A stretch of DNA of 64,000 nucleotides, from the IMG/VR virus record IMGVR_UViG_3300019752_000005, positions 12,626 through 76,625 of that record, one strand, 5' to 3'. The notes under the pieces were generated by a model. The model was not told the origin of the DNA. It saw only the letters and a list, made by a program, of their open reading frames with translations, and made no database searches. Origin of the DNA: a virus. A program made the translations under genes and the position numbers. The first letter of the stretch is position 1, and every line of letters starts with the position of its first letter. Below, piece by piece: positions 17,785-48,187 of the stretch.

Positions 17785-18438
17785 TAAATAAACCTAAATG
17801 TTATATTGGAAGCAACCAACACTTGAAAGTTGATTCCAATATTGTTAACAGATCATTGCATGGAATTATACCAACTTTTCAATTCCAAAGTCAATATTTT
17901 TATGGAATTAAATTCCATAACTTTTACTTATGGTTTTGTAGCGGAATCGTTATACATGGAATCGCTTATATAACAATGAGTTGTATTATAGAATTCCATT
18001 TAATATGGAATATTCCACTATATTTTATATTTTAGAAGGAATTCCATAATGCCGATTCCATTGGAAGTATTCAATAATGCGCGTGATATAGTGCATGAAC
18101 AGTTTAGTAACTTTGATCATAGTTGCGTTTTAAAATTCCATCAAGATAGCACATTTAATATCGAAACAGGAAAGGAGGAAGCGATAGGTGTGCAGTCTTA
18201 TGAATTTAAAGCTAAGAGGTTTAACTACACCAAGAAGGAGATGAATGACTTTAATTTTTCTGTATCAGATTTTAAGTTAAATGTTAATTTTGATTCCATT
18301 CCACTGGAACTACAGAACGTAATCAAAGATAAGAATGATTCCAACAAAATAATCCAGGTTGGAACTGTGGTTGTTGATGATGATTTGGTTATGCAGGTTG
18401 AAGATATAGTTGTGTTACCAAAATACATAAACATGGAA
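17479..18438. repeat. dense field of TGGAA/TTCCA pentamers (~28 copies, both orientations)
   Basis: Manual count. Includes palindromes TGGAATATTCCA (18006-18017), TATGGAAT-taa-ATTCCATA (17901-17919) and TTCCATTGGAA (18056-18066). Confidence 0.8.
18018..18027 (+). promoter_or_regulatory. putative late-promoter motif CTATATTTTA
   Basis: Identical 10-mer upstream of the head-closure-like gene, TerS and portal. Confidence 0.55.
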
Positions 18439-18459
18439 ATATTTCTTAGGCAGCAATAA
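18049..18459 (+). CDS. putative head-closure/head-tail connector protein
   Basis: 136 aa, beta-rich; TFNIETG...NYTKKE...SDFK pattern and C-terminal EIFLRQ typical of siphovirus stopper proteins. Confidence 0.5.
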   Translation: MPIPLEVFNNARDIVHEQFSNFDHSCVLKFHQDSTFNIETGKEEAIGVQSYEFKAKRFNYTKKEMNDFNFSVSDFKLNVNFDSIPLELQNVIKDKNDSNKIIQVGTVVVDDDLVMQVEDIVVLPKYINMEIFLRQQ

Positions 18460-18470
18460 ATTTTAGGTAT

Positions 18471-18498
18471 AAAAAAACCTCAATTAAGAGGTTTTTTT
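18471..18498. terminator. bidirectional intrinsic terminator
   Basis: A7-CCTC-aattaa-GAGG-T7 between convergent genes. Confidence 0.85.
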
Positions 18499-18519
18499 GC
18501 AGTCTAACTAATTAAGCTT

Positions 18520-18840
18520 TTAATAAATCCAGCCATCATCAGTTGGTTGATAATGACCGCGCATTTTGTAGATGTCAATAAATTCATCTACCAAACAAAC
18601 CAACTCAGGATCACAATCATGCATTATTTTAACTTCTGGTAAAGGCATGTATTCCACATCAAGCTTGCTTAACTTAACATCACAATCAAGTAAATCAACT
18701 TGCTTTTTACCATCCAAAATATCATAAGGATTAATGTCACCGCTAATATGCTTTAAACTTAAACCACTAAAGTCTGGTTTGTAATTCCAATCAGTTTTGC
18801 GTTGTTCTGCTAATACTTCGTTTGTTGCAAATGTTGGCAT
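18520..18840 (-). CDS. hypothetical protein
   Basis: AAGGA RBS; upstream CTATATTAA variant. Confidence 0.6.
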   Translation of the reverse strand: MPTFATNEVLAEQRKTDWNYKPDFSGLSLKHISGDINPYDILDGKKQVDLLDCDVKLSKLDVEYMPLPEVKIMHDCDPELVCLVDEFIDIYKMRGHYQPTDDGWIY

Positions 18841-18867
18841 GGTATATTCCTTAATATAGGTTTAGGG

Positions 18868-19851
18868 TTATTTCATGATTTGTTTTTTGTAAGATTCAAA
18901 GTCAACGTCTTTGTATCCAACTCTGAAATATCGAGGGTAGTTTTCACTTTCAATAGCACTTTGTAATTTTTTACGTGTGTGATGCGTGTCATCTTTTGAT
19001 GCAGCGTCGCTTAATGTTTTAAAAACTCCGTTAGGTGTTACAAGCAAATAACTGATATCAGGGATAGGTTGATACTTATCTGGGTTAACAATAAAATCTT
19101 GTAATAAATACTTGTCAAGCAGTTTACGATAACCTTTCTGTTTTCCATTAACACTATACCATTTAGACCATAATGATGAAGTGACATTCTTTTCTAAATA
19201 ATCACTTGAAATATCAACACCAACTTTCTTTGGTTGATCTGTTGATGTAAAAATACCATGTGGTGTGACGTACAAGATATCATCTTTAGTGTAGATACCG
19301 CAAAGCTCAAAACTTAAGCGATCAATATCACTAACAATGCTTAGACTGGAAACCATTTCCTTAACTTTTGCTTGATGAAGGTCTTCAATCGTTTTGAATT
19401 TGTTGCCTTTATCATCTAAAACATAGGTCTGATTAGTTTGTTTATTAGATAGCTTTGAGCGTGTTAGTGTGATTGGAAGACTGATAGTGTAACTTTCGTT
19501 ATCACTTTTCTGGCTTGCTAGGTAATCATTAATTAATTCTAACACTTTCTTAGGGATTGTTGTTAATTCTTTCTTGCATTGATTCTTGAGTGATATGTAA
19601 GATTTTAACATCTCCTTATCTGTGATAACTAATTGAACCGATGTAGCTTTAGATGTTTTTTTGTATGATGGATTTAAAGGTAGTTTTTTAACTGAATTTA
19701 AATCAGGTTTCCTGTTTTTCACCTGTGATGATAAAATCAATTCCATTACACCTTTACCAAATGATATGTTTTCTTCAGCACATAAATCAGCAAATAATTT
19801 AGTTGAGTTTGATTTAGTATCGAATGCTATGTTTGTTTTAACTGGTTTCAT
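18868..19851 (-). CDS. putative DNA-binding protein with RHH-like N-terminus and repeated NUMOD1-like modules
   Basis: YVTPHGIFTS, LVTPNGVFKTLSDAA and DDKGNKFKTIED repeats; no nuclease motif seen. Confidence 0.5.
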   Translation of the reverse strand: MKPVKTNIAFDTKSNSTKLFADLCAEENISFGKGVMELILSSQVKNRKPDLNSVKKLPLNPSYKKTSKATSVQLVITDKEMLKSYISLKNQCKKELTTIPKKVLELINDYLASQKSDNESYTISLPITLTRSKLSNKQTNQTYVLDDKGNKFKTIEDLHQAKVKEMVSSLSIVSDIDRLSFELCGIYTKDDILYVTPHGIFTSTDQPKKVGVDISSDYLEKNVTSSLWSKWYSVNGKQKGYRKLLDKYLLQDFIVNPDKYQPIPDISYLLVTPNGVFKTLSDAASKDDTHHTRKKLQSAIESENYPRYFRVGYKDVDFESYKKQIMK

Positions 19852-19919
19852 ATTTAAATCCTAATATATTGTGTTGTTTGTTATGTGTTAAGTATGTTAT
19901 CAAACAGTGTTGTAAGTTG

Positions 19920-20318
19920 TCAATCACTTTTTTGATATTTTTTTGCTAAAATAAATTTAGCCTTTTCAATTTCCCTCTCCACCACTGGCTCACAGATAGA
20001 TAAATCTAGGTTATACTTATTTTTTATATATAGTATAGATGTTAAGTACTCCTTTCTTAGTTTCCAACCAACGATGGCTGCACGTACTGTGTTCAAGTTA
20101 ATTTCACTCAAGTTTGCTTTAAAATAAGCTACAACCTGACTACCAATATTATCTGATAATGGCATATTACGTCTAAACACCGTAAATTCCTTTTTTAAGT
20201 GGTTTATTAACTTGCGCCTAGCTTCTTTTTTCTTTCGTTGATTGTAGGTTTTCTTATTTGGGTTTGTAACCCTAATACTATTAAATGTTTTAGTTTTCTT
20301 TTTCTTGTATTTAGTCAT
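19920..20318 (-). CDS. ProQ/FinO-family RNA chaperone
   Basis: LKKEFTVF...PLSDNIG...VRAAI..W...EYL...KYNLD....V...E.EKA matches the FinO/ProQ domain pattern. Confidence 0.65.
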   Translation of the reverse strand: MTKYKKKKTKTFNSIRVTNPNKKTYNQRKKKEARRKLINHLKKEFTVFRRNMPLSDNIGSQVVAYFKANLSEINLNTVRAAIVGWKLRKEYLTSILYIKNKYNLDLSICEPVVEREIEKAKFILAKKYQKSD

Positions 20319-20333
20319 TTTAGTGTTGCTTCC

Positions 20334-21293
20334 TTAGTTTGGGCAATAGGACACTATTCCACTTGGAATGTGTTTAATATTTACAGCGATATCATTGCAG
20401 TAACGTTTATTGTTCGTGTAGTCAATTAATATGTCATTTTTTATCCTGTGTTGCGTATAACTTATCATTTCAGGTAAGTCTTTTTCATCTTGTAGGATAT
20501 CAGATAAATGCTCTGGGTATAATAAAACAAGCTGGTGTTCACATAGAATATAAATATGCCTCAACAATTCTTTGTCAGTGACCTGCATTAATTCATCCTT
20601 GGTTAACCAAATCTCGTTTTCATGCAGCACCCCTAAAACCTCTTTTACACGTTGGCTAGGTTTTTTACTTCCTAATACATCACGTTTAAATTCATCTTTA
20701 TCAACAATGAAGTCACGCATCAAGCATTGCTCATAGAGTCTATTTATCTTTTCCTTTTTATTAATATTGCCTTTTTTGTAGTAGTGGCATTTTTTCCACT
20801 CCCTATCCTGCTGTTGATATTCGTCACAACCATAATTAACACATGTAACACATTGAACGTTACCCATTTGATCTGATGTTAATGTGAATATGTCGATATT
20901 ATCAGGTGTGGGTATTCTCTCCTTAACCACATTATCAGAAACTGGTTTAAAGCCTATATTCATTTTTTCAATAAAAATACTAAGCTCCTGCCATCTTCTA
21001 ATAAGATTAACATCAGAACCTAATGAAGAATATCCGCTTTTATTCCTGTATATTGCTACATATTGCTGTAAAAATTGTTTGTTATTTGTGTGGAAAGTAA
21101 CATCTCCTAAATCACCACCATCAACAAGCTGTTCCAGTATCCCTATAACTATTCTAATCACATGTGGTGGGCTTTTTTCTACAGTGTATTTTTTAATATC
21201 ACCCCCATCTAACGAGCTGTAACCTATGTTATCATCAATCTTGATGTAAAAGTTTTTCATTTTAACCTGCGCCTTTATTAAGATCTTCTTCAC
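20334..21293 (-). CDS. protein with degenerate RNase HI-like N-terminal domain
   Basis: VTFHTNNKQF...NLIRRWQEL...IGFKPV parallels the RNase HI V...TDSQY...N..LW..L...WV segment; catalytic Asp not seen. Confidence 0.4.
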   Translation of the reverse strand: MKKILIKAQVKMKNFYIKIDDNIGYSSLDGGDIKKYTVEKSPPHVIRIVIGILEQLVDGGDLGDVTFHTNNKQFLQQYVAIYRNKSGYSSLGSDVNLIRRWQELSIFIEKMNIGFKPVSDNVVKERIPTPDNIDIFTLTSDQMGNVQCVTCVNYGCDEYQQQDREWKKCHYYKKGNINKKEKINRLYEQCLMRDFIVDKDEFKRDVLGSKKPSQRVKEVLGVLHENEIWLTKDELMQVTDKELLRHIYILCEHQLVLLYPEHLSDILQDEKDLPEMISYTQHRIKNDILIDYTNNKRYCNDIAVNIKHIPSGIVSYCPN

Positions 21294-23133: not shown

Positions 23134-23357
23134 TACCTTTCTCTGTTTTATGGTGGACTAGGATATAACCCACCTATAATAAATCAATTTATTGTGATTT
23201 AATACCAGCTAATACAGCACCAGCAAAAGTTACAGTTAACGCTACAAAATAAGAAACCACCGCACTACTAGCCATGATTCCATCGCCGATAAAAATACCT
23301 ATTGTTAAAAACAAGCTGGATATTAATAGTAGGAATAAACCAGATAACATAAACATA

Positions 23358-23807
23358 TCACTGCACCCCTGTAGAACCAAAGCCATTATCACCGCGCGAT
23401 GTTTTAGCTTTAAACTCACTTACTTCAATCATTTTAACATTAACCACTGGAACAAACACCATTTGACATATACGTTGCCCAACGTCCACTGCATAATCTT
23501 TATTACTACGATTCCATAATGCAACCTTCACCTCACCCTGATAATCAGAATCAATTAACCCAACTAAGTTACCTAAAACAATTCCGTCATTAACACCTAA
23601 GCCAGAACGTGGAATCAATACTGCTGCAATTTGATTGTTATCAATATTGATAGCTAATCCACTACCAATTAACACTGTTTCACCAGCTTTGATAACCACT
23701 GGTTGATCAATATTTGCTCTAATATCCAACCCAGCACTACCTATGGTAGCCTGTTCTGGTAATTCATTTTCATTTCCGTTTAATCGTTTAACTTCAATTA
23801 AATTCAT
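23358..23807 (-). CDS. dut: trimeric dUTPase
   Basis: AGLDI, PRSG, GLIDSDYQGE, RICQ, RGDNGFGSTG. Confidence 0.96.
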   Translation of the reverse strand: MNLIEVKRLNGNENELPEQATIGSAGLDIRANIDQPVVIKAGETVLIGSGLAINIDNNQIAAVLIPRSGLGVNDGIVLGNLVGLIDSDYQGEVKVALWNRSNKDYAVDVGQRICQMVFVPVVNVKMIEVSEFKAKTSRGDNGFGSTGVQ

Positions 23808-31628: not shown

Positions 31629-31857
31629 AGACATTGAGTTTCAGCGTAGTGAGTTGTTATTTAATCTCACTGAAGATATTCTTGTTCATATGGAGGATAA
31701 TAATATCACTAAACTTGATTTAACCAGAAAAATCAATAAATCTGGACTATGGGTTACTAGGTTTTTTAATGGGGATATAGATATTACTATCTCCCAATTA
31801 AATGAAATTTGTTTTGCGTTGGGTGTGAAGCCTATTTTTGAGATTAAGGAGAAGTGA
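31621..31857 (+). CDS. XRE-family HTH protein
   Basis: ITKLDLTRKINKSGLWVTRFFNG..DITISQL.EI..ALG. Confidence 0.75.
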   Translation: MSRDIEFQRSELLFNLTEDILVHMEDNNITKLDLTRKINKSGLWVTRFFNGDIDITISQLNEICFALGVKPIFEIKEK

Positions 31858-32045
31858 TTGTGTTTTTTAAAGACTTAGATGGTGCTGATTTTATAGTTAA
31901 CCCAAGTGCTATAACACTTATAACTGATATAAGAGAAAAAAGCTATCTTGTTCATGTTGGTGAGCGCAAGATATACGCGGTATTCAAGAGTGAGCGAAAG
32001 AGAGATGATTCTTTACACAGTATCAATGAGTTTTGGAATAAATAA

Positions 32046-32837
32046 ATGAAACAATACCACGACCTATTACACCACATCCTACAAAACGGTATAGACAAAC
32101 AAGACCGTACAAAAACTGGTACACGCTCAGTATTTGGCTACCAGTACCGTCACGATTTACAAGAAGGATTCCCGCTTTTAACAACTAAGCGCGTGCATTT
32201 TAAATCAATCTGCTATGAACTCCTATGGTTTTTACGGGGCGACACTAATATTAAGTATTTGCACGATAATGGTGTAACAATTTGGGATGAATGGGCTGAT
32301 GAAGATGGTGATTTAGGTTCGGTTTATGGGAAACAATGGCGATCATGGCAGTGTAAAGATGGTAGCACTATTGATCAAATACAAAATGTGATCGATGAAA
32401 TACAAGTGAATCCTGATTCACGACGTTTAATTGTGAACGCTTGGAATGTTGGGGAACTTGATGAAATGGCATTACCTCCCTGTCACTTGCTTTTTCAGTT
32501 TTATGTGGTGAATGGCAAGTTGTCGTGTCAACTGTATCAACGCTCAGGTGACGCTTTCTTGGGAATTCCTTATAATTTAGCATGTTATTCTCTCCTAACC
32601 CACATGATCGCGCAACAATGCAATTTACAGGTAGGCGAATTCATCCACACAATAGGTGATGCCCATATTTATTTTAATCATTTTAAGCAGGTAGAGTTGC
32701 AATTATCACGCGAACCTTTTAAACTACCTGCACTGATTTTGGAAAAAGCAGAAAACATAAATTCATACACGTACAAACACATTAATTTAGAAGGATATAG
32801 ACCACATGGTAAGATTAAAGCACCTGTTGCTATTTAG
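32046..32837 (+). CDS. thyA: thymidylate synthase
   Basis: DRTKTGT, ELLWFL, IWDEW, YGKQWR, SRR, LPPCH, YQRSGD, DAHIY. Confidence 0.97.
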
Positions 32838-33066
32838 TGTTTTATTAAGCGGTAATGTTGCAGCAGATTCATACACTGTACACGGCACCACTAAACAAAC
32901 CCATCATGAGAAACCATTACCTATCGCTTATACATTTGAATCAAGAGATGCTGCGTTAACCCGTTATCATGTATTAAAAAACAAATCATGGATGGGTTAT
33001 GTGTGCATTCATAATGATAAAACCCCAAACGATGAAACCTGTTCACACGCCAAGAAACCCCAATAA
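32806..33066 (+). CDS. small secreted protein
   Basis: Signal peptide ending VAA-D. Confidence 0.5.
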
Positions 33067-33108
33067 TACCTAGTTAAGGATACCCGTGTAATAGCGGGTA
33101 TAATAAGT

Positions 33109-34302: not shown

Positions 34303-34876
34303 TGAAGATAGACGATGTGGATTATATGATCATATTTTCCACTTGGATGATGATGGAAATGTTATAGGTGAAGATAGTATGATGATACATATACCATACA
34401 ATGCTCAATCATCGAAGAACGCACAAATGATTGTGTATCGTGGAGGTCTTAAGATGGGTACAACCATCACATCACAAAGGCAGGCTGCTGGATTAGCAAG
34501 GTGTTATGGTATTAAGCAGAATAAAAAGTGTGATGAATATGAGCGCAACACTAAATCTTTTTTTCTGGAAAATAAAGAAAAATTCCAAAGTTTAGTGGAA
34601 AATTTACCAAAACCACTAATCATTGGTGTTTATTACATGCGTAAGACGATGCATGAATTTGATTATCATAATGTCGTGCAACACTTAGCGGATTTAATCT
34701 CAGAGCCTAGTGGAGCTAAAAAGAAAGGCTATGGGTGGGTAAAGGATGATAATATGAAGGAAACCATCTATCTACCGCTGGGATACTGTGTAACTAAATA
34801 TAATGGAATGCCAAAAGAAGGTGTTATCATCAAAATCTTAAGTTTAGAGAAATACATGGAGTTTATTAGATCATGA
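34289..34876 (+). CDS. RusA-like Holliday junction resolvase
   Basis: SSKN, R.T...FDYHN...DL...WVKDDN acidic residues. Confidence 0.6.
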   Translation: MTVNSEDRRCGLYDHIFHLDDDGNVIGEDSMMIHIPYNAQSSKNAQMIVYRGGLKMGTTITSQRQAAGLARCYGIKQNKKCDEYERNTKSFFLENKEKFQSLVENLPKPLIIGVYYMRKTMHEFDYHNVVQHLADLISEPSGAKKKGYGWVKDDNMKETIYLPLGYCVTKYNGMPKEGVIIKILSLEKYMEFIRS

Positions 34877-35370
34877 GTAGATGTGATTGGTGGGATGTGC
34901 CAACAAATAATCCAGAATCTTTACATAAAAAGTTATCGGCATTAGAGGTTTATGATTCTGGCGTGCCTGCTGAACGCACAGCAAGGTGTAATGATGTCGA
35001 GTGTTTTAGTTACCAGAACTTCACTGAATTTTTATTAAATATGCGTGAAAAGCATAGCGGTAGCACTGAGTTTGGAAAAATCAGAAATCAACGCGTATTG
35101 CGTAGCATATTCACTAAATCAGAGCAGGATGTATTCGGTAAAAAACTATATCCCACAACAGAATCACGCGTGGTGTTTATTTTTTATGAGCTTATAAAGC
35201 AGCACCCTTTTGTAGATGGGAATAAACGCATTGCTGCAACATTTTTATATGCAACACGCGCTCATATGGGTGTTACGTTAAATCGGGCTATGTGTGCAGC
35301 ATTATTTGTTGCAGGTAGCGTGGGTGAGGATCGGGATAGTGTTATTGGTTTTATTGAGGGAGTTATTTAA
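34873..35370 (+). CDS. Fic/Doc-family protein (Doc-type motif)
   Basis: HPFVDGNKRIA; upstream Q..FG..LYPT. Confidence 0.85.
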   Translation: MSRCDWWDVPTNNPESLHKKLSALEVYDSGVPAERTARCNDVECFSYQNFTEFLLNMREKHSGSTEFGKIRNQRVLRSIFTKSEQDVFGKKLYPTTESRVVFIFYELIKQHPFVDGNKRIAATFLYATRAHMGVTLNRAMCAALFVAGSVGEDRDSVIGFIEGVI

Positions 35371-35437: not shown

Positions 35438-35899
35438 ATGCAACGAGATATTGATATTTTAAATAAAATTATCACAGAAGAAAAAACTGCTGCAAAAAAC
35501 CTAGTTATTAGTGCTGGTGCAGAACCAATCTACCAACAAGGTTACATTAACGCATTTCATCTCCTAGGTGTTTTGAATCGCCTATGCAAAGCTAGGGGTG
35601 ATATCCCAGAATTCCAGATGTCACGCGGGGTGGCTTATTTTGTTGATGATGATAGTATGATTCGTCACATTACATTTAAAAATAAGCATACAGATATATT
35701 TGTAAGCGGCACCACTAATGTTATAAACTATAATGGTAATTCAACTGAGAAAGCGTTTAATGTAACGTTAGACTTTAATCAATACGATGACCTAGAATGG
35801 CATTCGTTTATGTTTCGCTTTTCAGTGAAGATTTTGGACGCTCTTGACATTAACAAAACTAATTTAATTAAAGTGATAGATAGGAGAGAAGACACCTAA
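35438..35899 (+). CDS. hypothetical protein
   Basis: ORF downstream of a strong promoter. Confidence 0.65.
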   Translation: MQRDIDILNKIITEEKTAAKNLVISAGAEPIYQQGYINAFHLLGVLNRLCKARGDIPEFQMSRGVAYFVDDDSMIRHITFKNKHTDIFVSGTTNVINYNGNSTEKAFNVTLDFNQYDDLEWHSFMFRFSVKILDALDINKTNLIKVIDRREDT

Positions 35900-35983
35900 T
35901 TAATGTGAATGGCAGTATGTTCCAAAATGGAACGTACTTGATTCATCAATAAAAACAGCTTAAGTACACACAAGGAATAAATA

Positions 35984-36205
35984 ATGGATAATTCAAATAT
36001 TGGTCGTGAAGTAATAATTATTCAGCACCGATGGATGGGGCAGATAACAAAGGAGATTGGCGAGCCGAAAACAGATATTATCACCAAGGAAACAAAAACA
36101 ATGGTTACCACAGCGAATAATGGTCGTTTTATGAAGTCAACAGAACTAAAGCGCGGAGATTCCATGAGTAACCCAATATTTACAACTATAAGGTTTACTA
36201 CATAA
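35984..36205 (+). CDS. small beta-barrel (TKT...RF.K family) protein
   Basis: KETKTM...GRFMKS shared with 49275-49820 and 62043-63047. Confidence 0.55.
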   Translation: MDNSNIGREVIIIQHRWMGQITKEIGEPKTDIITKETKTMVTTANNGRFMKSTELKRGDSMSNPIFTTIRFTT

Positions 36206-36237
36206 GTAGTTAAGCTAATTTAATCACCATCACCCGC

Positions 36238-36264
36238 CAAAGCATCTTAACTGATGCTTTTTTT
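36238..36264 (+). terminator. Rho-independent terminator
   Basis: AAAGCATC-ttaact-GATGCTTT followed by a T run. Confidence 0.8.
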
Positions 36265-36282
36265 ATGTCTGCAATAATCAAA

Positions 36283-36292
36283 CTATATTTTA
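36283..36292 (+). promoter_or_regulatory. putative late-promoter motif CTATATTTTA
   Basis: 45 bp upstream of TerS, just after a terminator. Confidence 0.55.
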
Positions 36293-36337
36293 TTAAATGG
36301 AAGTTAAGCGTGACAATAATAAAATAAAGGTTTATTT

Positions 36338-37081
36338 ATGATTTTAAGCAGAACACTAAAAATGCAGCCATGGGAACACGGTTTCATTGAAGGGGAAACA
36401 GAAAAAGAATATAGGGACTTACTAACTTATATAGAAATGGGTGTAAAGCGTTCTTTACGTAAGCTATGGACTGCGAATCATGCTAAGGACGAGAAGAATA
36501 AAGGTACATACCCATCATGGTGGGGTAATAGAGCAAAGGAGTTGAAGTGGGAGCGTAGGGCTATTGCTAACGATATACATAAAACTCAACAGGCTATGAT
36601 AAACGCTCAGAAAGAAGCTAAAAAAACAAATGAAGAAATGATTTATAGGGAAAAACAATGGCTTAGGGTTGTTAGTAAGAAATTAAAACGATATGAAGAT
36701 ATGGCTGATAATAACCAAGATGACCAAATATCACCTACTGATATGAAAGATTTAGGGTTGGCAATGAAAACTGTTCATTCTGAGTTGGAACGCCACCAAG
36801 GATTGGGTCAGTACGATCTAAATGATGTTAATAAGGTAGTGGAATTATCTATGTTAGAACCAGATTGGGTTTCAGATAGTATTGATCCAGAAAAGAAAGC
36901 TGTTAATCTTACTTGGCAGATGTCATCAATAAATCAATTTGGAATGCTTACCAACAATACTAAGCTTGCATTAGGCACAAATGTGTATATGCAGAAGATG
37001 TTAGAAGTTGATGGTGATGAATATATTCAGTCTATAACTACACCAAAGCCGACAGCAACAGTAAGTAGGAAAGATGATTAG
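36338..37081 (+). CDS. terminase small subunit (putative)
   Basis: Directly upstream of TerL; ET..EY.....Y..MG..RSL...W......W..RA...D pattern. Confidence 0.65.
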   Translation: MILSRTLKMQPWEHGFIEGETEKEYRDLLTYIEMGVKRSLRKLWTANHAKDEKNKGTYPSWWGNRAKELKWERRAIANDIHKTQQAMINAQKEAKKTNEEMIYREKQWLRVVSKKLKRYEDMADNNQDDQISPTDMKDLGLAMKTVHSELERHQGLGQYDLNDVNKVVELSMLEPDWVSDSIDPEKKAVNLTWQMSSINQFGMLTNNTKLALGTNVYMQKMLEVDGDEYIQSITTPKPTATVSRKDD

Positions 37082-37086
37082 TTAGT

Positions 37087-38673
37087 ATGGGGTACTTTAA
37101 AAAAAAGAGAAAGAAGGTAGATATTGATCTATCCCAATCTAACATAGATCTACCCATGCACGATAAGCAGATTATTGCATTTAATACTTTTGCAAACGAA
37201 ATATTATATGGTGGTGCGCGTGGTGGTGGAAAATCTCTTTTATTAAGGTATGCTGCAATAAAGTGGTGTTTAGATGTTGATGGTATTGAGATTTATATAT
37301 TTCGTAAAACTTATGGTAATGTTATCAGAAACCATGTGTATGGTTCATTAGGTTTTAGTGCAATACTCGAACCATTAAAAGCTTTTGGTGTTAGAATAAT
37401 AACAAGCCAATCACCTATGGTTATATTCCCTAATGGAAGTAAAATAATCCTAAGTTACCTTAGAAATATGGCTGATTATGATAATTATCACGGGATCGAA
37501 ATGCCTGTTGTCATGTTTGACGAGCTAACGCAATTTCCGCAAGAGCTTTACTCTTTAATTAAAGGTAATCTGCGTATGACAAATATAGAAATACCAGAAA
37601 AATATAGTTCTCAGGTTCTTATTAAGCAAGCTGCTGAGCAAGGGGTTGAATTACCAGATACATATAGTTTTTTTCCTAGAATAATATCAAGTTCAAATCC
37701 AACAGGAATCGGTCACAACTGGGTGAAATCAAACTTTGTTGATAGGTGCGGTAACGACATGGAGTTAAATATCATACCTAAAGATGAAGGTGGCATGGTG
37801 CGTCAATATGTTCCTGCAACAGTGTATGACAACCCCCAATTAATGAAGGACAGCCCAAACTACATCCACAATCTAAAATCTCTACCACCAGATAAGAGAA
37901 GGGCGTACTTAGAAGGTGACTGGGATGTTACATCAGGTGGTGCGGTAGATGATGTTTGGGATAGGAATATTCATATTGTTAAAGCGTTTGATATACCACC
38001 AACTTGGGTGGTTTTTAGATCTCTTGATTGGGGTGAAGCACACCCTTACTCAGTGGGCTGGTGGGCACGTTCAAACGGCGAAAGTGTTAAGTTAAAGAAT
38101 GGCTTAACTGTAACCTATCCAGCAGGTACAGTATTTCGTATATATGAGGACTATGGGTGCGCAAATCCAGATAGAGAGCCTGATAAAGGAGTTAGGTTAA
38201 CAACAACACAAGTTGCTAGACGTGTGTTAACTATAGAAGAAAATCTTGGTATAAGAAGCGCATTTGGTATTGCTGATGGGCAAATATTTAGCCCAAATAA
38301 CGGTAGTTCTTTATATGAAGGTTTTGAGAAAAATGAAGTGTATTGGGTTGCAGCAGATAAGTCACCAGGTTCACGTAAAATAGGATTATCTCTATTAAAG
38401 GCTATGATGAAATCATCTGTAGATAGAGATGATTATATAGTTAGAATGCAACAAGGCGATCATGTTCACCCGCCAGAATCAACTCATGAAGAGTCTTGTT
38501 TCTACGTATTTGATAGATGTAAGCAGTGGATAAGGACAGTGCCAAGCCTACCATTAAGTAAGCTTGACCCTGATGATGTTAATACAGATGCTGAGGATCA
38601 TATTTATGATGAAACTCGCTATGCGCTAATGCATAAACCATCACACGCTTCTATATTAAGTATGGATTATTAA
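37087..38673 (+). CDS. terL: terminase large subunit
   Basis: Walker A GGARGGGKS, Walker B MFDELTQF, SSNPTG, nuclease LDWG and DHIYDETRY. Confidence 0.93.
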   Translation: MGYFKKKRKKVDIDLSQSNIDLPMHDKQIIAFNTFANEILYGGARGGGKSLLLRYAAIKWCLDVDGIEIYIFRKTYGNVIRNHVYGSLGFSAILEPLKAFGVRIITSQSPMVIFPNGSKIILSYLRNMADYDNYHGIEMPVVMFDELTQFPQELYSLIKGNLRMTNIEIPEKYSSQVLIKQAAEQGVELPDTYSFFPRIISSSNPTGIGHNWVKSNFVDRCGNDMELNIIPKDEGGMVRQYVPATVYDNPQLMKDSPNYIHNLKSLPPDKRRAYLEGDWDVTSGGAVDDVWDRNIHIVKAFDIPPTWVVFRSLDWGEAHPYSVGWWARSNGESVKLKNGLTVTYPAGTVFRIYEDYGCANPDREPDKGVRLTTTQVARRVLTIEENLGIRSAFGIADGQIFSPNNGSSLYEGFEKNEVYWVAADKSPGSRKIGLSLLKAMMKSSVDRDDYIVRMQQGDHVHPPESTHEESCFYVFDRCKQWIRTVPSLPLSKLDPDDVNTDAEDHIYDETRYALMHKPSHASILSMDY

Positions 38674-38970
38674 GGATGCCTTATCCAAACACCCCTTACA
38701 AATAGATTTACCAGAAAATATTGAAATCAGTTTATCATCTTCTGCACCACATAAACTGCAACCCCATTTCGGTAGGTAACCTTCAAACAATACCCTTAAT
38801 TCATTATCACTAAGGGTGTGTAAACTTTCACCTAACCCATCAACAGAATTTAAAATCCTATTAATACTTTCAAGGGTGTATGGTTGGTAGAATGGGGATG
38901 ACTCAATAACACACTCTCTTAGATATTTTATTGTGCCATCAATAGACTCTTTTCTTGTGTGCAGGTGCAT
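38656..38970 (-). CDS. hypothetical protein with C-terminal CxxC...CxxC
   Basis: CSLCG...ICKGC. Confidence 0.55.
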   Translation of the reverse strand: MHLHTRKESIDGTIKYLRECVIESSPFYQPYTLESINRILNSVDGLGESLHTLSDNELRVLFEGYLPKWGCSLCGAEDDKLISIFSGKSICKGCLDKASLIIHT

Positions 38971-39717
38971 CTAATTTTTCAACCACTCAGTGCCACTTAT
39001 TTTATATTTTAAGTTAAAGTGCTCAATATCATCTTTAATTTCTATTGCAAAGCAATACTTGGGGTGCGATTCATCAAGCATCTCTTCAAAAATTTCTGCA
39101 ACATGAAGCTCCCCACCACATAACCAAGGCTCCTTCAGCATGTTTTCCATTGTACCAACAATACCGAAAGACCTTGTAACCACATTGCTTGGTTTAGAAA
39201 TATGCTTATCTTCCATATCACTGGATATCTGGTATTTTATTTTGTAAACACCAATCTTACGAATAATAGCCTGCACTAACTTAGGTAACCCACATTTAAT
39301 ATATTGCTGGTAATCAGCACCCAAATCGTCCTTCATTTTTTCCTTAGCCACTTCATCCCAGTTTGATGGGCATGTGATATAGATAGTGTATGGCATACGT
39401 GGTGTTAAACCGTTATGTTTCATAGATGATAAGTGGGATAGACAACAAAAATCATCTATTGCACATATTATTTCATAAGGGTTATGCTGATACTTTCCTA
39501 AGACATGATATGTATCATAATCAAATTCACTTCTATTTAACACACCAGATTCCAGTGCGCTATTTAAGTGGTTGTAGAAGATATCACTACTTGGTGTTTC
39601 TGTGTGAACTTCCTTATAAAAATTAAAGATAATCAAACCAAGATCATATAATCTTAAAACTGGTTTTTTTTGTTTACCTATTAATAAGTTAATCTCTCTT
39701 TGGTATTTCGACATCAT
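38971..39717 (-). CDS. AbiEi-like (type IV TA) antitoxin homolog, orphan
   Basis: LSHLSSM..NGLTPRMPYTIYIT...MLKEPWLCGG..HV matches the AbiEi-family pattern; no AbiEii neighbour. Confidence 0.6.
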   Translation of the reverse strand: MMSKYQREINLLIGKQKKPVLRLYDLGLIIFNFYKEVHTETPSSDIFYNHLNSALESGVLNRSEFDYDTYHVLGKYQHNPYEIICAIDDFCCLSHLSSMKHNGLTPRMPYTIYITCPSNWDEVAKEKMKDDLGADYQQYIKCGLPKLVQAIIRKIGVYKIKYQISSDMEDKHISKPSNVVTRSFGIVGTMENMLKEPWLCGGELHVAEIFEEMLDESHPKYCFAIEIKDDIEHFNLKYKISGTEWLKN

Positions 39718-39720
39718 AAT

Positions 39721-40322
39721 TTAAAAACCTTTAAAGCTGGAAACCAACTCACTATAAATTACCACGCCAAAGAAGTTTTCCAATCTTGCGCGTTCACCTT
39801 CTGTTTTTGGGTTTGCCATCTTTACAAATAGCTCTCCATCAGAACAAGGTATGGTGGTATTTTTTTGAAGCTTACTATCACCTACAGCAATAATATGTGC
39901 GGTGTAATGATGATTACCGTCACTTGACGGGTGTTTTTCATACCTAACACCATGTTTGTTCATGAAATTAAATAATCTTTTACCTAAAACTTGTTGTTGC
40001 ATACTAACTACTCCTTAATCTTACTCATGTAATTTACAGTATCAGGCATGTTATAAAACTGTTCTAGCAACTTTTCAACGTCACTCTCTTTAGTATAGTA
40101 TGAAGCGCGGAAACGATGCAAGTTTTCACCGTCTTTTTTACCCACAGCGACTAGGTCGCGGGAATCTTGTTGGTAGAATAGGGTGAATATGCCATTGTAT
40201 TCTAGTGTTTTGTAGGGTTTACTATCACAACAGATTGCTTTAATCAGGCAGTTGGGGGCTGTGGATGGGGTGAAGTTGGTTAGGTTTGGTATTAGATTTT
40301 CCTTTACCTTATGTTTTAACAT
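39721..40322 (-). other. two small hypothetical CDSs (39721-40002, 40008-40322)
   Basis: Coupled ORFs. Confidence 0.55.
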
Positions 40323-43300
40323 AAAAACTTCCTTAATTGTTTTTCAAGTTGAGCCATTCCACCGAATCTATTGTGTTGAAACATAAAACTACCTCTATCA
40401 AAGTTAGATTCTTTTATTTTAATTTTCTTATCACCTACCATGAAATATCTTACAAGAAAAGCATGTTGGGACAATGGATCGGCTTTTGCCTTTATCCCAC
40501 CAAAAACCACATCCTCACTTGTCATTGACTCCATTCTGTGAATCAGGGTCGCTGTAGTATTTTCTATATCACTTGTTATTTCAAAGCTCCTTGACGAATG
40601 CTGTAGAATTACTTTAGCAGCGTTTTGCACGCTCAACTCACTGCTAATAACGTGTATTTCATTTTCACAGCCATCTATTAAGTCTGTTTTAGTTACCCCT
40701 CCCACAAACCTAGCTCGACCATCTTTTATATAAAGTTGTACGTGCTTAATCCATTTGCTTTTGATATCTATCAATAGACCACCGTTGTTGCTAGTGCTAT
40801 TGATAATAAATCTATCTTGCACCCTACCTTTATTTAAGTGGTGTAATAGTTCGGCTTCTATTGAATTGAAAACCATAACTTCTTTTTTAAAAAACCCAAA
40901 CATAATATTTTCCTTTAAGTTAAAGCCGCCTGAGCGGCTGCTGATAGCTATTAGTTTAGCATATCCTTAATATCAGTAATTAAACCTTGCAGATCAAAAT
41001 GACCACCTAATATATTATTAGAAAGGCTTCTTTCGGTTGGTTTGATTATATCACCATCAGAGTTTAAATCATGTATACTATATTGCTCCCGCATACCTGA
41101 CACATGATATTTTGAGATGTGACGAATAACAAAAGACAAGTCATCGCTCATGAAATAGTAATAACGAGCATCATCATGTTCTCCACCGAATCTAATATCA
41201 ACCAGAATAAAATAACACCCGCCAGAAACCTCGTTTATCTTAGTGGTTAAAACACCCCCTATAGCCTTCGCCTCATCAATGACATCAACAGATTGCCGAG
41301 AACACCGCACCAATTCATCAATAATCACTTCTATATCAACAAGGCTGTTCTTTTTCACCTCAGCCCGATTAATTAGATCAATCTTACCTACGTCACTAAC
41401 AAACATACCTTTGTTATTTTCATCAACCCACACCTCCACGCCACTAATCCACTTATTTTGCAACGTGTAAAGCGCACCGTTTTCATCTTTCTGTTCCTTT
41501 TTTACGGTGAATTGGTGTGGGGATTTTTGGTTTAGGGTGGTTAGGAAGTCTTGATTTTTAATATATCTATCCTTAATCAAGGATGACGCTTCTTTAATAT
41601 AACCCTCCAAATCATTGCCGCTAAAACTAATTTCCCTGTACTTCCCATTTAAATCATAGAGGCAAATATCCACCATATCCAAACCCTTATCACCATGTAG
41701 AACAAAATCTGATGTTTGATATTCTGCAAACCACCCACTACCAACACTTAAACAGCTTTTTATATCACTAGGATTGATACTAGGAAGGCTTTTAGTTAAA
41801 AGGTGAATAAAATCACCTACCTTCAACTCTAGTGATTTATTATTCTTCTGCTTAACACTAATAATGTGAGATTTAATATCTGTAGCTATACCATTGATTC
41901 CAGTTGATGATGGTATGTTATTTAACCTCTCATTATTAATATGTAACCCCAAAATAAGATAATAATCATTAGTAGTGACACTGCCTAGTAATTTTATCGT
42001 TACATGTTTACCAAGCAGCATTCCATCAACTAAGTAATAGCTGCTTGATGAATTATGACCTATATGGTGTGAGTCAAGGAATGTAATGTTGTTTTCAATT
42101 TCTCTAATCTTTACATTATCAAAACCATTACCCTCAAAAGCATCACGAATACCGCGTAACACCTCATCTTCAAAAGCACTCCTAACACACTTAGCCAAAC
42201 ATTTAAACATAATTAAATTCTCCTGATAAAACATCATTCACTTTATTTTTTAATTCACCAATCAAAACATCCTCCTTCAATCCCACTTTTTGTCTATTCA
42301 CATATAAACTACATGTGGTTAAATCATCGTTATTTTTAATACAAGGGAATAGTCTAATCTTGTCACTAGTTTTAAGGAATGTAACTGGCATAGTACCGTC
42401 TAGTAGTGCGGATACAGTGTAGCCATAGTTCCATATTATCACTAAATCCCTTTCTTCTCTTTCTACTTTAATATTGGTGAAGCCTTGCTCTAATAGAGAT
42501 TCTTTAATTTGTAAAGAAACTTTATCTGCTAAAGTGCATTCAACCCATTTTTTTAAGTGTTTAATCATGCTCGCTCCTTTTTTAATTAAATAACACTAAA
42601 ATTATAACACAAATAACCAATTACGTAGCCAATTAGAGCTAATAAAGACCGTGAATAGCTAAGAATAATGATTAATACGTCCATTTAGTTTTAACTTTAC
42701 AAAAATCGAGCATCATTTTTTCCAATACATTTACAATATCTTCATTAAAAACAGGAAACTGTGTTGTACGTTCTGGCTTGTGTGTATCGATAAGATAGCA
42801 GTCAATCCAATTCCCGTATGAATAATTGAATACAACATAAAATCTCATACCATTATATCTAACTAAAAATTGATTACGCCTAAACCACTCGTCATATTCT
42901 ACAACCACAAATTCAGTATTTTTTATATGTGCAGTCTTAAAATTTAAGTTGTCTATGATTTTACCAAAAACACTGTAAGGCATTGGTGGTGGATAATTTA
43001 CATGATATGGTGTATGGTTGCGTTTAAAATACATCCTGATTTTACTGAGTAATGTCATTTAATACTCCCAACTAGTATAAATTTTATGACATTCTAAAAT
43101 CTTTTTTGGCAGCATATTAGTTAATTGTGAGCGTATAAACTTTACTTCACTACCCCACCCACCATTTATATCCATAACAAAACAAGATAACCCATTGTGA
43201 GTGGAGTGATCATAACTCATAAGTAAAACTGTGAGCGTTTCACCTGACTCAACTACTATATCATTACTGTGATGATCTAAATTGATTTTAATTATAGAAA

Positions 43301-43834
43301 ACCTACGATGTTGTTGTGTGGATAATAATCTTGAATTCAAGTTATCGATTAGATTGTAGATTTCAATTATCGATAACAATGGAGGTTTGATTGGGTTTTT
43401 ATCGCATTCTGTTTTCTTGTTAAACATAAGAATGTTTTTAATCCAACTCATGTTATTCTCCTTATACCATGATCAGCTCTTATAGAGATAAGATGTTTAA
43501 CCAATGAACTCATGTAATGTGGACACAGCGGTCTTTTCATAGAATCATAAAAACCTAAGTGTTTAAAGTTGTTTTTTACTGTCACCTTAAACTCCCATAG
43601 ATAATACCTATAACTATATAAATCTGTGACAGTTAGATTGATAAAAGTTTGACCTCTATCTGATACTTTAGCTATAATTTCATCAGGTGAATTAGTTAGA
43701 TCACCTTCTATAACAATAAATTCATCGTGACTGAACATCTTATCATTAAGTAATTTTATAGTATGATTAATGCAATTTATTTTTATTTGCTCGTCATTTG
43801 GTTTGGTATCTTTTTTCTTAAAAAAATTAAGCAT
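40316..43834 (-). other. array of paralogous accessory CDSs (40316-40903, 40951-42237, 42203-42568, 42672-43058, 43059-43451, 43448-43834)
   Basis: Shared segments: KWI..V....D...FV..V.K.DLI; GF.N[VI]K[IV]; IDNLN; amphipathic N-termini. Confidence 0.65.
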
Positions 43835-44114
43835 TGAAATGAAACCTCTCTAAATAAAATTTCCCATACTGGTTAATTATGGGTGTAAGGTAAGCTGTGT
43901 AATATAACAAGTAAACATACCAGCTTGCCTTCCTACTCATCATCTCAACTGGATCTTTATAGCTATAATGGATCTCATGCCTGTAAAACTCAATCTGTTC
44001 TTTTATTTTAACGTCGCATTCATAGAGAGAATGCGACTGACAAGCCAAACCATATTCTAGTGTTTGGGCTATATAGAGGTTGTTATGTTTGTGGATGATG
44101 TATCTGACTTTCAT
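43827..44114 (-). CDS. HicB-like protein
   Basis: YIAQTLEYGLACQSHSLYEC..KIKEQIEFY resembles the HicB N-domain. Confidence 0.55.
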   Translation of the reverse strand: MKVRYIIHKHNNLYIAQTLEYGLACQSHSLYECDVKIKEQIEFYRHEIHYSYKDPVEMMSRKASWYVYLLYYTAYLTPIINQYGKFYLERFHFNA

Positions 44115-44361
44115 CTAGGACAATCCTTTTTAACGGTATTGGTTAGTGCTTCCAACCAACTCATTGACCATCCATAAAATATTTCATCAAGCATTTCATT
44201 AGATAGATCATAAATATTATCACCATAACCAGATATTATATCTAAATCTAGCTTAGCATCCACTACATCATGATGATTATAATCACATAAAAGTTCATAA
44301 GCGATTACCCTTAGATAATATATTTTATTGTTAATCAATAAAACCTTTAGTTGTTGTTCTG

Positions 44362-45132
44362 TCACTTATCAGACCTTATTATTAACACCTCTTTAGCGTC
44401 TTTCCTAGATGTTTTCTTGCACGCTATATTTCTCTTGACATCAAAAAAAACGAACTCAAAACCCTTGCCAGAATACAACTCTATTATATCTATATCAGCT
44501 TTATTGGATACAACAACATCTCCGTCTATTGAAGATGCGTATTTACATAATCTAACTTGATCACCCCATGAAAATCCCTTACCTGTATAGCCATTAAATG
44601 AATTATGGTATGGTGGATCAATATAAACAAAATCACCATCTCTTGGTTGAACATTACTAAAATCTGTGCAGGTGAATTTAAAACTACTAAACACATCTTT
44701 ATAGGCAAGAAAATCTTTTTTGTAATTTATATTGAAATAACTACCCATACCAACATTAAAGTCACCTCTCTTGTTGAATCTAACTAATCCATTAAAGCAG
44801 GTTCTATTTAAATAGTAGAATAGCTGCGCTGCATACGCAGTGTTTTGATTGTCAAGATCGTTAAATACATCACGATAATAATAATATAAATCTTTATCGT
44901 TCCTCATATCTATATCGCAAACCAATCCGTGCTGAATTTGTTTATAAAGGTTGATCACATGCGGGTTTAAATCATTCAGCACAGCATCATTAACACCTAA
45001 ACCTAACGCAACAGAAACACCTCCAGCAAAAGGCTCAATAAGCCTTTGTTCTTTTTTATAGTATTTTTTTAAGGTGGGTATAAGCCAACGTTTACCGCCA
45101 GCGTATTTCAACACAGGATTTAACAAGCTCAC
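44362..45132 (-). CDS. dam: DNA adenine methyltransferase (Dam/D12 class)
   Basis: LKYAGGK, EPFAGG, LNRTCFNGL.R.N..G.FN, DPPY. Confidence 0.93.
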   Translation of the reverse strand: MSLLNPVLKYAGGKRWLIPTLKKYYKKEQRLIEPFAGGVSVALGLGVNDAVLNDLNPHVINLYKQIQHGLVCDIDMRNDKDLYYYYRDVFNDLDNQNTAYAAQLFYYLNRTCFNGLVRFNKRGDFNVGMGSYFNINYKKDFLAYKDVFSSFKFTCTDFSNVQPRDGDFVYIDPPYHNSFNGYTGKGFSWGDQVRLCKYASSIDGDVVVSNKADIDIIELYSGKGFEFVFFDVKRNIACKKTSRKDAKEVLIIRSDK

Positions 45133-45983
45133 ACCTCAACCACATAATTAATGTATTTAATTTTGTGGTTTTGACCATATAAAGGAAATTTGCTGTCCCC
45201 CATAGGATGTCTTCTAAATGCCTCGTTAAAAACATTTACCATTTTACCATGCTGTTTCAATAGTTGGATTCTGGTTTGTGACAACTGTCTTAATCTGAGT
45301 AAAGCTTTATCTTTATTAACGAAGTCACCTAACACCCATAATACATTACCATGCTCATTAACTGCTATAACTTGATGTATTTTCATTATCTATCTCGCAC
45401 AAAAAAAGGATACCTTATCGCATCCTTTAATTATAGTGTAGATCTTACAAATTTCTTTACACAGACATAATCCAATCCATTAACTCTGTTGTTGGCTCAA
45501 GCACACATAGTTCTGAGTGATTAAATACAGCATTAATACATACATTTTCTTCATCAACTTTACACCCAAGATGTTCACCCATTTTATATGCATGAAAACC
45601 ATGATCAGAGTGATGTAAGCTTGCATCATCCATAAACTCAGCTATCAACTCTCTCATTTCGTTATCTGTGAGGTGTTGCATGGAAATAATTCCTGTAGTT
45701 TGTTTAACGTAGGTTCTATTAGCTGGATAACCTCTAAAGCCTTTAATTTAGCTTTATCTCTATCATCCTCGTTAACATAATAGATAAGCTCATTAAATAT
45801 GTCAAGGGTGTGCTTTGGTATTGATGTGCATCTGCTTGGAAATATTTCTATTTGCACAGAATTTAAACCGCATTTCTTATCTAAAGAATCTGAAGCTAAT
45901 ACGGTAGTAGATATTCTATAAATTCCCTTGTATTGTTCAAATTCATTTTCCGATACCAGCAGTCTCTTTATTATTTTCAACAA
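45129..45983 (-). other. three small hypothetical CDSs (45129-45386, 45457-45681, 45654-45983)
   Basis: Short ORFs in operon context. Confidence 0.55.
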
Positions 45984-46651
45984 TTTAAAACCTTTATTAG
46001 TTCGTTAGTTATAACCACATCTTGCTTACAATATTCATGCAGTAACTTGAATTCTTTTTCCTTGTACGCATCCCATACCAACGCACCACACATAGCTTGC
46101 TTTTTATAATTCAATGTTTTAGCACCATAACCAAGTAAAGATAAGGACGCGTTATCCATAGAAACACCTCTCTCGTCTGAAATCATTTTCATTACATCAA
46201 CACTACGTGACCAGTACCTTTTACTTTCATAAACTGGAAATAGTTCTGGTACTGGAATATTCATCTTAATAAAAGAATTTCTAAGTAAAAATAGATCATA
46301 ACTTGATGAATTATACCCATACCAGATTGTTTTCAAACACACGTTATCACCCACCCAACTATAAAGTTTCTCCATGATATTTTCTCCGTCGAAGCAATCT
46401 ATGGTGTGATGGGTGTTATCCACATAAACATGAATCAAAATTGGTTCTGCATACAACGGATTTAATGATGTTTTTCTAACTAAATCTTGGTATCTACCAT
46501 CTATAGCATCATCGGTATCCCACGATTCTTTTAAAGCTTTTCTCGTATTGTGCTTTGGCTTGGAATTAATAGATTCCTCTCTAAACTTTTCCAATAACAC
46601 AGGATTACTTGTTGGAATTGCTTCCACGTCAAACACTAATTTTCTAATCAT
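45977..46651 (-). CDS. DEDDy 3'-5' exonuclease (PolB-exo-like, stand-alone)
   Basis: ExoI FDVE, ExoII GYN...YD, ExoIII YCKQDV. Start reassigned to MIRKLV at 46651 (GGGAG RBS) to avoid overlapping the portal. Confidence 0.85.
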   Translation of the reverse strand: MIRKLVFDVEAIPTSNPVLLEKFREESINSKPKHNTRKALKESWDTDDAIDGRYQDLVRKTSLNPLYAEPILIHVYVDNTHHTIDCFDGENIMEKLYSWVGDNVCLKTIWYGYNSSSYDLFLLRNSFIKMNIPVPELFPVYESKRYWSRSVDVMKMISDERGVSMDNASLSLLGYGAKTLNYKKQAMCGALVWDAYKEKEFKLLHEYCKQDVVITNELIKVLNC

Positions 46652-46661
46652 AATACTCCCG

Positions 46662-46671
46662 CTATATTTTA
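46662..46671 (+). promoter_or_regulatory. putative late-promoter motif CTATATTTTA
   Basis: 31 bp upstream of the portal ATG. Confidence 0.55.
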
Positions 46672-46702
46672 ATATTAATAATAAAAATAGGTATTTTAAC
46701 AT

Positions 46703-48187
46703 ATGAGCATAGAATATGATATAGAAAGTCCTGAGTACGCAGCGCATAAGAAAAATTGGATTATAACCCAAGACTTAATGGGCGGTACTCCAGTTATGCG
46801 TGAAAAAGGAGAAGAATACCTATTTAAAAATGAAAAAGAAGGTGAAAAAAAATATAGACATAGATTAGAAAGTTCTACATTATACAATGCTTATCGCTCA
46901 ACATCAATTAGGCTTATTGGTCAAATACTGCATGATAGGATTATGATAGATGATAGCTCAACAAATGAATTCAAAGAGTGGATGAAGAACGTTGACAGGC
47001 AAGGTAATGATATTAACATGTTTGCCAAGCAAATCTGCTATGACGCTTATCATTTTGGTGTGGCTCATATATTCACAGAAATGCCTGATAAAAGTAAACT
47101 AGAAAAAGAGTATGATGATGCTGGTATTCCTTATACAATGCAAACCGATATTGAACATGGGATAAAGCCATATCTATGCAGGGTATCCCCCATGAATGTT
47201 TTAGCAATTAGATTTGATACTAAATTTGGCGTTAAGGAGCCTTACTATGTTAGAACAATAGAAAGAAATCAAATTGAAGATGAAGAAAACCCACTAGTAA
47301 CTATTGAACAAAAAGTAGTTAGAGAGTTTAGAAGAGGGGTATTGGTTACCCATACAAAAACAGGCGATGGGCAATGGGAATCTAAAACAAGGAATAATTA
47401 TAAGAAAAGAATACCGATTACCACGCTTTATTTTAGACAGGATGGGGATGGTTACGGAAGACCTGTAGCTGAGGATCAGGCTTATGATAACGTTAAGCAT
47501 TGGCAAATACAAAGTGACACTGAAAACTCCGCAAGATTTAGCAGGTTCCCTATGCTGTCAGTTATTGGTGTTGATAAGAGTGAAATAGATCAATTTAAGG
47601 TTATTAGTCCAGATAAGGTATATACAACTTCACAGAAGGATGCAAAAATTGGATATATTGAATCTAGGGGTGAAGCTATTAGTATTGGTGAAAAACAGTT
47701 AGAACGCCTTGAAAGACAAATGGACGCAATGGGTACACAATTACTCATGCCTACATCAGGTAAAATGACAGCTACAGAAGCCGCTATTAAGAACGCAGGT
47801 TCTCAAGCCACAATAAACTCCCTGATACTTGTTTTAGAGTCAGCATTAAATCACGCGCTAGGGCTTGCAGATACATGGTATACCACCACCATAAACACCT
47901 ATAAAGGTTCTATAACATTGTCATTAGACGCACAATTTGAAGAATCAAAACCAGATCCACAGCTATTATTAGCATTACATAAGCTTGCAGGGGAGTTAAG
48001 TATATTTAGTCCAGAAGCAGTGGCTGAAATAATTAAATCTTTATACGATTGGCTACCAGAACAAAGTGCAGAAGATATTGTTGCTGATGCAGAGGATACA
48101 TCCAATGATGTTGGAATGGAATCTTTACCAGAAGGCGAAGATTTAGATGAACTTATTGATGATGAGCTGGACGAGGAAGAAGATTAG
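46703..48187 (+). CDS. portal protein (DUF4055-type)
   Basis: 494 aa; GG...MR..GEEYL...Y.HRL....LYN, NVDRQGN, G.AHI, H.Q..SD, TATE, acidic tail. Confidence 0.85.
   Translation: MSIEYDIESPEYAAHKKNWIITQDLMGGTPVMREKGEEYLFKNEKEGEKKYRHRLESSTLYNAYRSTSIRLIGQILHDRIMIDDSSTNEFKEWMKNVDRQGNDINMFAKQICYDAYHFGVAHIFTEMPDKSKLEKEYDDAGIPYTMQTDIEHGIKPYLCRVSPMNVLAIRFDTKFGVKEPYYVRTIERNQIEDEENPLVTIEQKVVREFRRGVLVTHTKTGDGQWESKTRNNYKKRIPITTLYFRQDGDGYGRPVAEDQAYDNVKHWQIQSDTENSARFSRFPMLSVIGVDKSEIDQFKVISPDKVYTTSQKDAKIGYIESRGEAISIGEKQLERLERQMDAMGTQLLMPTSGKMTATEAAIKNAGSQATINSLILVLESALNHALGLADTWYTTTINTYKGSITLSLDAQFEESKPDPQLLLALHKLAGELSIFSPEAVAEIIKSLYDWLPEQSAEDIVADAEDTSNDVGMESLPEGEDLDELIDDELDEEED

Follow-up and report, generated by a model that had tools for sequence, protein, structure and literature searches.

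The stretch of DNA analyzed here, hereafter the window, comprises 64,000 nucleotides (nt) and spans positions 12626-76625 of one virus record of 76,625 bp (IMG/VR record IMGVR_UViG_3300019752_000005; GC 34%), which represents an uncultivated phage from microbial-mat metagenomes. Our subject is the 10-mer CTATATTTTA, which lies upstream of the terminase and portal genes and of two ORFans, and which may be the core of a phage promoter class. A PHROG scan covered all open reading frames (ORFs) of at least 250 amino acids (aa) and most of at least 95 aa, with Pfam applied to many as well. Matches were obtained for terS (36338-37081, + strand; phrog_6299, 1e-6), terL (37087-38673, + strand; phrog_979, 8e-40) and the portal gene (46703-48187, + strand; phrog_145, 2e-74), in agreement with the assignments in a preliminary description of this DNA that had been made from the letters alone. 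The portal protein has a single real homologue, to which it is 31% identical. Examination of the ORF map showed that portal and the gene at 18049-18459 are lone + strand genes within - strand blocks, and that TerL and portal are 8.0 kb apart with - strand genes filling the distance, as had been described.

Exactly four copies of CTATATTTTA are present in the window. The computed expectation is 1.02, close to the single chance occurrence assumed in the preliminary description, and 3 of 100 shuffles reached four copies; the 12.6 kb of the genome outside the window contain no further copy. All four are intergenic, are co-oriented with the downstream gene, and lie 21-45 nt before its start codon, so that the placement reported earlier holds at every site. 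Copy 1 (9930-9921, - strand) follows the stop codon of the RNR gene by 11 nt and precedes the 9352-9879 ATG by 41 nt. Copy 2 (18018-18027, + strand) is located 21 nt before the start of 18049, in the densest part of a field of TGGAA/TTCCA pentamers, and is overlapped by a near-copy, TTATATTTTA, at 18025-18034. Copy 3 (36283-36292, + strand) precedes the terS ATG by 45 nt, and copy 4 (46662-46671, + strand) precedes portal by 31 nt. The gene divergent from portal starts at 46651 and not at 46771, which places copy 4 in a divergent spacer of just 51 nt. A 70-aa ORF with a TTG start and no ribosome-binding site (17823-18035, + strand) overlaps both the pentamer field and copy 2; it was treated as spurious, and copy 2 would be coding sequence if this ORF were real.

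Each motif-headed unit consists of one or two genes and is bounded by terminators or convergent genes. The terS-terL unit is insulated from the + strand genes upstream by an intrinsic terminator with an 8-bp stem and T7 (36239-36260, + strand), which ends 22 nt before copy 3, and there is no other plausible -10 for terS past this terminator. Portal is followed by a hairpin at 48202-48218. A bidirectional terminator hairpin, A7CCTC-N6-GAGGT7, lies at 18471-18498 between the convergent genes 18049-18459 and 18520-18840. The 9352-9879 gene (- strand) forms a monocistronic unit that ends in a hairpin with T9 on the - strand (9324-9341), beyond which a TTGACA-17 promoter serves 8808-9245. Within the 9352-9879 ORF, approximately 430 nt from its start, there is also a strong hairpin that resembles a terminator and has a T-rich tail (9428-9448, - strand; GGTGTTTTTT). 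The 3' part of this gene or its expression may thus be more complex than that of a simple gene.

The sequence of the motif resembles a promoter element. Within every copy, TATATT is a 5/6 match to the -10 consensus TATAAT, and this hexamer is preceded by an invariant C and followed by TTA. A scan for sigma-70 consensus promoters listed none of the four copies, and neither a -35 nor a TGn was found at any of them: the hexamers spaced 17 nt from TATATT agree with TTGACA at roughly two of six positions at best, and the bases preceding TATATT are ACC, CAC, AAC and CGC. This differs from the other promoters of the phage, as the preliminary description had pointed out. These are of the TTGACA-N17/18-TATAAT type (e.g., before 8808, 26230, 35438, 48228, 58805, 62043 and the 17784 operon) or of the TGnTATAAT type, and 32 of the 124 TATAAT hexamers in the genome fall in the 8% that is intergenic. 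A reverse-complement reading, in which TAAAAT acts as the -10 of leftward genes, was considered and rejected; it would leave a leader of approximately 7 nt in the portal spacer, and the leftward gene at 18018 is 234 nt off.

The two ORFans provided few clues to their function. Both products were searched against PHROG, Pfam, PDB and the ESM Atlas and with a word-index search. The product of 18049-18459 (P0004, 136 aa, + strand) had been called head-closure-like, an assignment that we cannot uphold: it has no match in PHROG, Pfam or PDB, and a BLASTP comparison with Hc1 of Pseudomonas phage Ab18 gave an E-value of 18. An exhaustive HMMER search returned one homologue, 93% identical, among 1.8 billion representatives, and because this homologue is single and so similar no alignment was possible. 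An AlphaFold2 single-sequence model had a pLDDT of 34 and was unusable. The sole lead came from an embedding comparison, with a score of 0.95 to unnamed viral clusters; PF19586, the single Pfam family noted among them, has no match in the genome. The 175-aa product of 9352-9879 (P0005) has no PHROG or Pfam match and only a 97%-identical homologue, and the other searches gave nothing usable.

Based on these features, we tentatively propose, at a little under an even chance, that a small class of factor-dependent promoters lacking a -35 and a TGn drives terS-terL, portal and the two ORFans. CTATATTTTA would be the core of this class, which is expected to be intrinsically weak for the host primary sigma holoenzyme because both the -35 and the extended -10 are absent. 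Each copy would head one of the short insulated transcription units, namely terS-terL, portal, 18049 and 9352-9879. Delayed expression would most likely depend on the host RNA polymerase being altered by the phage or on some activator, and at two of the four sites a factor binding the neighboring TGGAA/TTCCA inverted pairs may take part. Promoter activity, factor dependence and late timing are what we infer from the position, orientation and composition of the motif; a virion role for either ORFan would be a further step of the same kind. A putative phage-specific promoter motif is a well-known kind of feature, routine in phage genome papers, and the class proposed here is plausible but unproven. 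If it exists, the motif would single out packaging and late transcription units in a lineage of phages that has almost no sequenced relatives, would flag two ORFans as co-regulated with terminase and portal and so offer a handle for their annotation, and would add another case of phage gene timing by -10-only promoters.

A number of observations weigh against this proposal. The statistics are only moderate, with look-elsewhere p values of about 0.04-0.21 depending on the null. With every 10-mer on either strand of the intergenic DNA (6.1 kb) taken into account, 16-21% of Markov randomizations gave a comparable word with at least four copies. In favor of the proposal, no 10-mer other than CTATATTTTA that is free of an A5/T5 run occurs in at least four of the 54 oriented upstream regions (5.7 kb), and words of the bona fide TATAAT class reach at most three. 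When these regions were randomized, such a word appeared in a share of trials that ranged from 4% at order 1 to 11.5% at order 3. Some 10-mer is shared by 5.7% of upstream-region pairs, so the match between terS and portal alone is weak. One-mismatch variants of the motif are almost all intragenic, and there are no correctly placed ones and no degenerate family, which is unusual for a family of promoters. TATATT is not enriched upstream of genes (10/164, compared with 21/124 for TATAAT), and CTATAATTAA, the core of the common -10 region of this phage, is only two mismatches from CTATATTTTA. Gene 18049 has a second, near-consensus sigma-70 promoter approximately 240 nt upstream and pointing toward it (17778-17807, + strand; TTGACA-18-TATATT, 11/12 with a TG). 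Copy 1 may be a variant of an ordinary TATAATTAAA + hairpin cassette described below, and the one other recognizable virion gene, Neck1, has no CTATATTTTA upstream.

The search for a factor that could read the motif adds to this list. No match to sigma-70 region 2 (PF04542) was found in six frames, and phmmer --max and tblastn searches for a T4 gp55 homologue gave a best E-value of 0.12; the phage sigma factor suggested in the preliminary description thus found no counterpart in the sequence. An activator homologue was likewise not found, and no family was matched by the two genes that immediately precede terS (35438-35899 and 35984-36205). The candidate that did emerge is a 491-aa protein (14320-15795, - strand) with a C-terminal winged helix-turn-helix (HTH; PF13412, 2.5e-5) and a weak, below cut-off match to Sigma70_r4_2. 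Its C-terminus holds the only region-4-like HTH in the genome, and its gene belongs to an operon that starts at the TGGAA/TTCCA field. Judged by its domain, it is a candidate DNA-binding regulator.

Many of these points favor an explanation in which CTATATTTTA is a 10-mer shared by coincidence among AT-rich spacers, each gene having its own ordinary weak sigma-70 -10 or being reached by read-through, with no common regulation. The moderate p values, the frequency with which upstream regions share a 10-mer, the missing degenerate family, the lack of TATATT enrichment, the proximity to CTATAATTAA and the additional promoter of 18049 all fit this account, as does the finding that alignment of the flanks on the motif revealed nothing common to the four sites. 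It does not readily explain why four out of four copies are correctly oriented and similarly close to a start codon, or why terS and portal are both among the four, for which we calculated a probability of C(52,2)/C(54,4) = 0.004 for four regions drawn at random from 54. In addition, terS needs a promoter past its terminator, and two of the copies adjoin the only TGGAA/TTCCA clusters in the genome. We therefore regard coincidence as rather unlikely, while taking it seriously, and think it somewhat more probable that the motif is functional than that it is not, although the case is not a strong one.

The pentamers bear on a second alternative. Four TGGAA/TTCCA pentamers lie at 46561-46626, 36-101 nt upstream of copy 4, confirming a cluster noted earlier, and include the inverted pairs GGAAT-N6-ATTCC and TGGAA-N4-TTCCA. 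They are located inside the - strand coding sequence 45977-46651, which encodes a PolB-exonuclease-like protein. Genome-wide, four pentamers within 66 nt occur only in this cluster and in the 17.6-18.4 kb field that holds copy 2. Inverted pairs of the form TGGAA-N0-8-TTCCA or TTCCA-N0-8-TGGAA number 15 compared with 1.5 expected, and nine of them are in the 17.6-18.4 kb field (window 17604-18360); the others are at 20357, 33851, 34583, 35920, 46613 and 50836. The pair at 35920, TTCCAAAATGGAA, is located in the spacer that precedes 35984-36205, the gene next to terS on its upstream side.

The 10-mer could accordingly be an operator to which a repressor or activator of the phage binds, not read by the polymerase itself and possibly acting with the TGGAA/TTCCA pairs. 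Its sharp boundaries and its 10/10 identity without degeneracy would suit an operator, as would the excess of inverted pairs clustered at copies 2 and 4 and the 491-aa winged HTH protein encoded in the adjacent operon. On the other hand, the motif is not palindromic, the spacing between pentamers and 10-mer differs between copies 2 and 4, no pentamer cluster adjoins copy 1 or copy 3, and no protein binding the motif was identified. We consider an operator improbable. A more far-reaching version of the promoter proposal appears equally doubtful. In this version the packaging genes would be isolated single-gene islands, each switched on via a strictly conserved 10-bp element without a -35 by a reader unrelated to sigma-70 or gp55 that is hidden among the ORFans, possibly the motif-driven ones, with the TGGAA/TTCCA arrays feeding in a signal linked to replication or acting like an enhancer.

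Late promoters that have a poor -35 and need an activator are known from several phages, including those that depend on Mu C, P2 Ogr and phi29 p4, and activators of the RinA/ArpU type are encoded upstream of terS. In such systems the conserved element is the upstream activator site and not the -10 region. The arrangement described here resembles these systems in having weak, -10-only elements before terS or late operons, with the TGGAA/TTCCA pentamers as candidate upstream sites at two of the four copies. It departs from them in that the conserved part is the -10 region, and the activator search described above found no homologue.

An element acting at the RNA level in the 5' leaders, such as a processing site, a stability element or a translational operator, would also be consistent with the location of all copies on the sense strand upstream of a start codon. 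Copy 1 is directly followed by a strong hairpin, AAGGATGCA-N6-TGCATCCTT without a T-run (9897-9920, - strand; -14.8 kcal/mol, z -3.3). RNA folding of the four leaders, however, revealed no fold in common and a strong hairpin at copy 1 alone, and the motif precedes the ATG by anything between 21 and 45 nt. Furthermore, two of the copies are in spacers between divergent genes, one of them only 51 nt long, and such a spacer has to accommodate a promoter, which would place the motif at or upstream of the transcript start. An RNA-level role is thus very improbable.

The hairpin after copy 1 invites comparison with other elements of this phage. Three cassettes on the - strand, at 45405-45440, 52590-52645 and 53435-53490, consist of (TG)nTATAATTAAA followed by a GC-rich hairpin and a T-run. 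The first bases of the copy 1 hairpin, the 10-mer TAAAGGATGC, are common to the -10/hairpin cassette at 45435, which reads CTATAATTAAAGGATGC + hairpin compared with CTATATTTTAAAGGATGC + hairpin at copy 1. It is on this basis that copy 1 may be a variant of the ordinary cassette. PeSL promoter/stem-loop cassettes have been described in T4-type phages (PMC2839356, PMC4122927). The TGnTATAATTAAA + hairpin + T-run cassettes at 45435, 52639 and 53483 (- strand) are similar to these, and copy 1 has the same layout, whereas its hairpin lacks the T-run and copies 2-4 have no stem-loop.

The late promoters of T4 consist of TATAAATA at -13 to -6, read by gp55 together with gp33 and the gp45 clamp (PMC1524935). 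The four sites share with them a single short AT-rich, -10-like element without a -35 before virion or packaging genes, and this phage encodes a sliding clamp of the processivity-factor kind (13123-14253; phrog_947). A T4-type system, in which a gp55-like sigma reads the element with help from the clamp, is nevertheless highly improbable: the sequence is a different one with just four copies and no degenerate family, the searches for gp55 and for sigma-70 region 2 were negative, and TATAAATA is under-represented in the window (9 compared with 14.6 expected) and absent before terS, portal and 18049. Membership of the T4 late-system family was rejected on the gp55 search and the TATAAATA count.

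The nearest annotated relatives of the recognizable morphogenesis proteins are found in Abidjanvirus/YuA-like siphoviruses such as Ab18, with identities to the Ab18 proteins of 32% for TerL, 31% for portal and 25% for Neck1 (ORF59 in Ab18). Ab18 keeps terS, terL and portal together with its head, neck and tail genes in a single co-linear + strand block, whereas here the recognizable ones lie apart. The Neck1/tail completion gene, at genome positions 2777-3247 (+ strand; phrog_169, 6e-15), lies outside the window and 9.4-9.8 kb ahead of its first base. This gene, too, stands alone on the + strand with - strand neighbors on both sides, which fits the scattering, and a TATAAT stands 1 nt before its ATG. 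The dispersed late regulon advanced in the preliminary description is therefore borne out in part. The dispersal of TerS-TerL, portal and Neck1 is evident, as are the consistent position and orientation of the motif, its lack of a -35 or TGn, and the insulation of the units. The extension to a regulon read by a dedicated factor is not, given that Neck1 lacks the motif and that no sigma factor or activator was detected.

The scattering claim is further limited to packaging and neck genes, as no recognizable capsid or tail genes are present. Among the ORFs scanned with PHROG and Pfam, there was no match for capsid, scaffold, protease, tail tube, tape measure or baseplate proteins. A six-frame search with HK97-type and lambda-E-type capsid models also returned nothing, and the longest ORF without an assignment is no more than 491 aa. 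A DNA polymerase catalytic domain of family A, B or C was not found in the record, which does encode a clamp, a primase, helicases and the PolB-exonuclease-like protein. The record carries an exact inverted terminal repeat (ITR) of 123 bp at genome positions 1-123 and 76503-76625 (window 63878-64000), and the IMG/VR/CheckV class assigned to it is ITR-bearing and 100% complete. We favor the explanation that the record may be one unique segment of a larger genome that was broken at the inverted repeat and scored as complete by that repeat. The alternative, that the virion genes have diverged beyond recognition, is unlikely because portal, TerL and Neck1 were easily found. The more consequential practical point is that a record classed as complete lacks capsid, tail and DNA polymerase genes, and statements about its genome architecture need caution.

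Surveying other sequence collections for relatives returned few results. Three mat metagenome runs contained fragments identical to the record, and a relative in one marine metagenome showed roughly 92-98% identity across the pieces listed. Megablast of 36000-48500 against a phage collection gave no match, and no relatives were found in scans of viral contigs seeded with the portal, P0004 and TerS proteins or in a scan of metagenome contigs seeded with TerL. Neither the viral nor the metagenome contigs contained the ITR pattern, but the record from which the window is taken may be masked in these collections. In the marine metagenome, other organisms gave the thymidylate synthase gene (32046-32837, in the region 31735-33068) a very high depth and numerous variants; as this is a conserved gene, its depth and variants are no evidence on the phage. 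Two further domain assignments were made in the window. The product of 19920-20318 (- strand) matches the ProQ/FinO domain narrowly under the cut-off (PF04352, 7e-6), and 34873-35370 (+ strand) encodes a Doc-like toxin domain (phrog_577, 1e-9).

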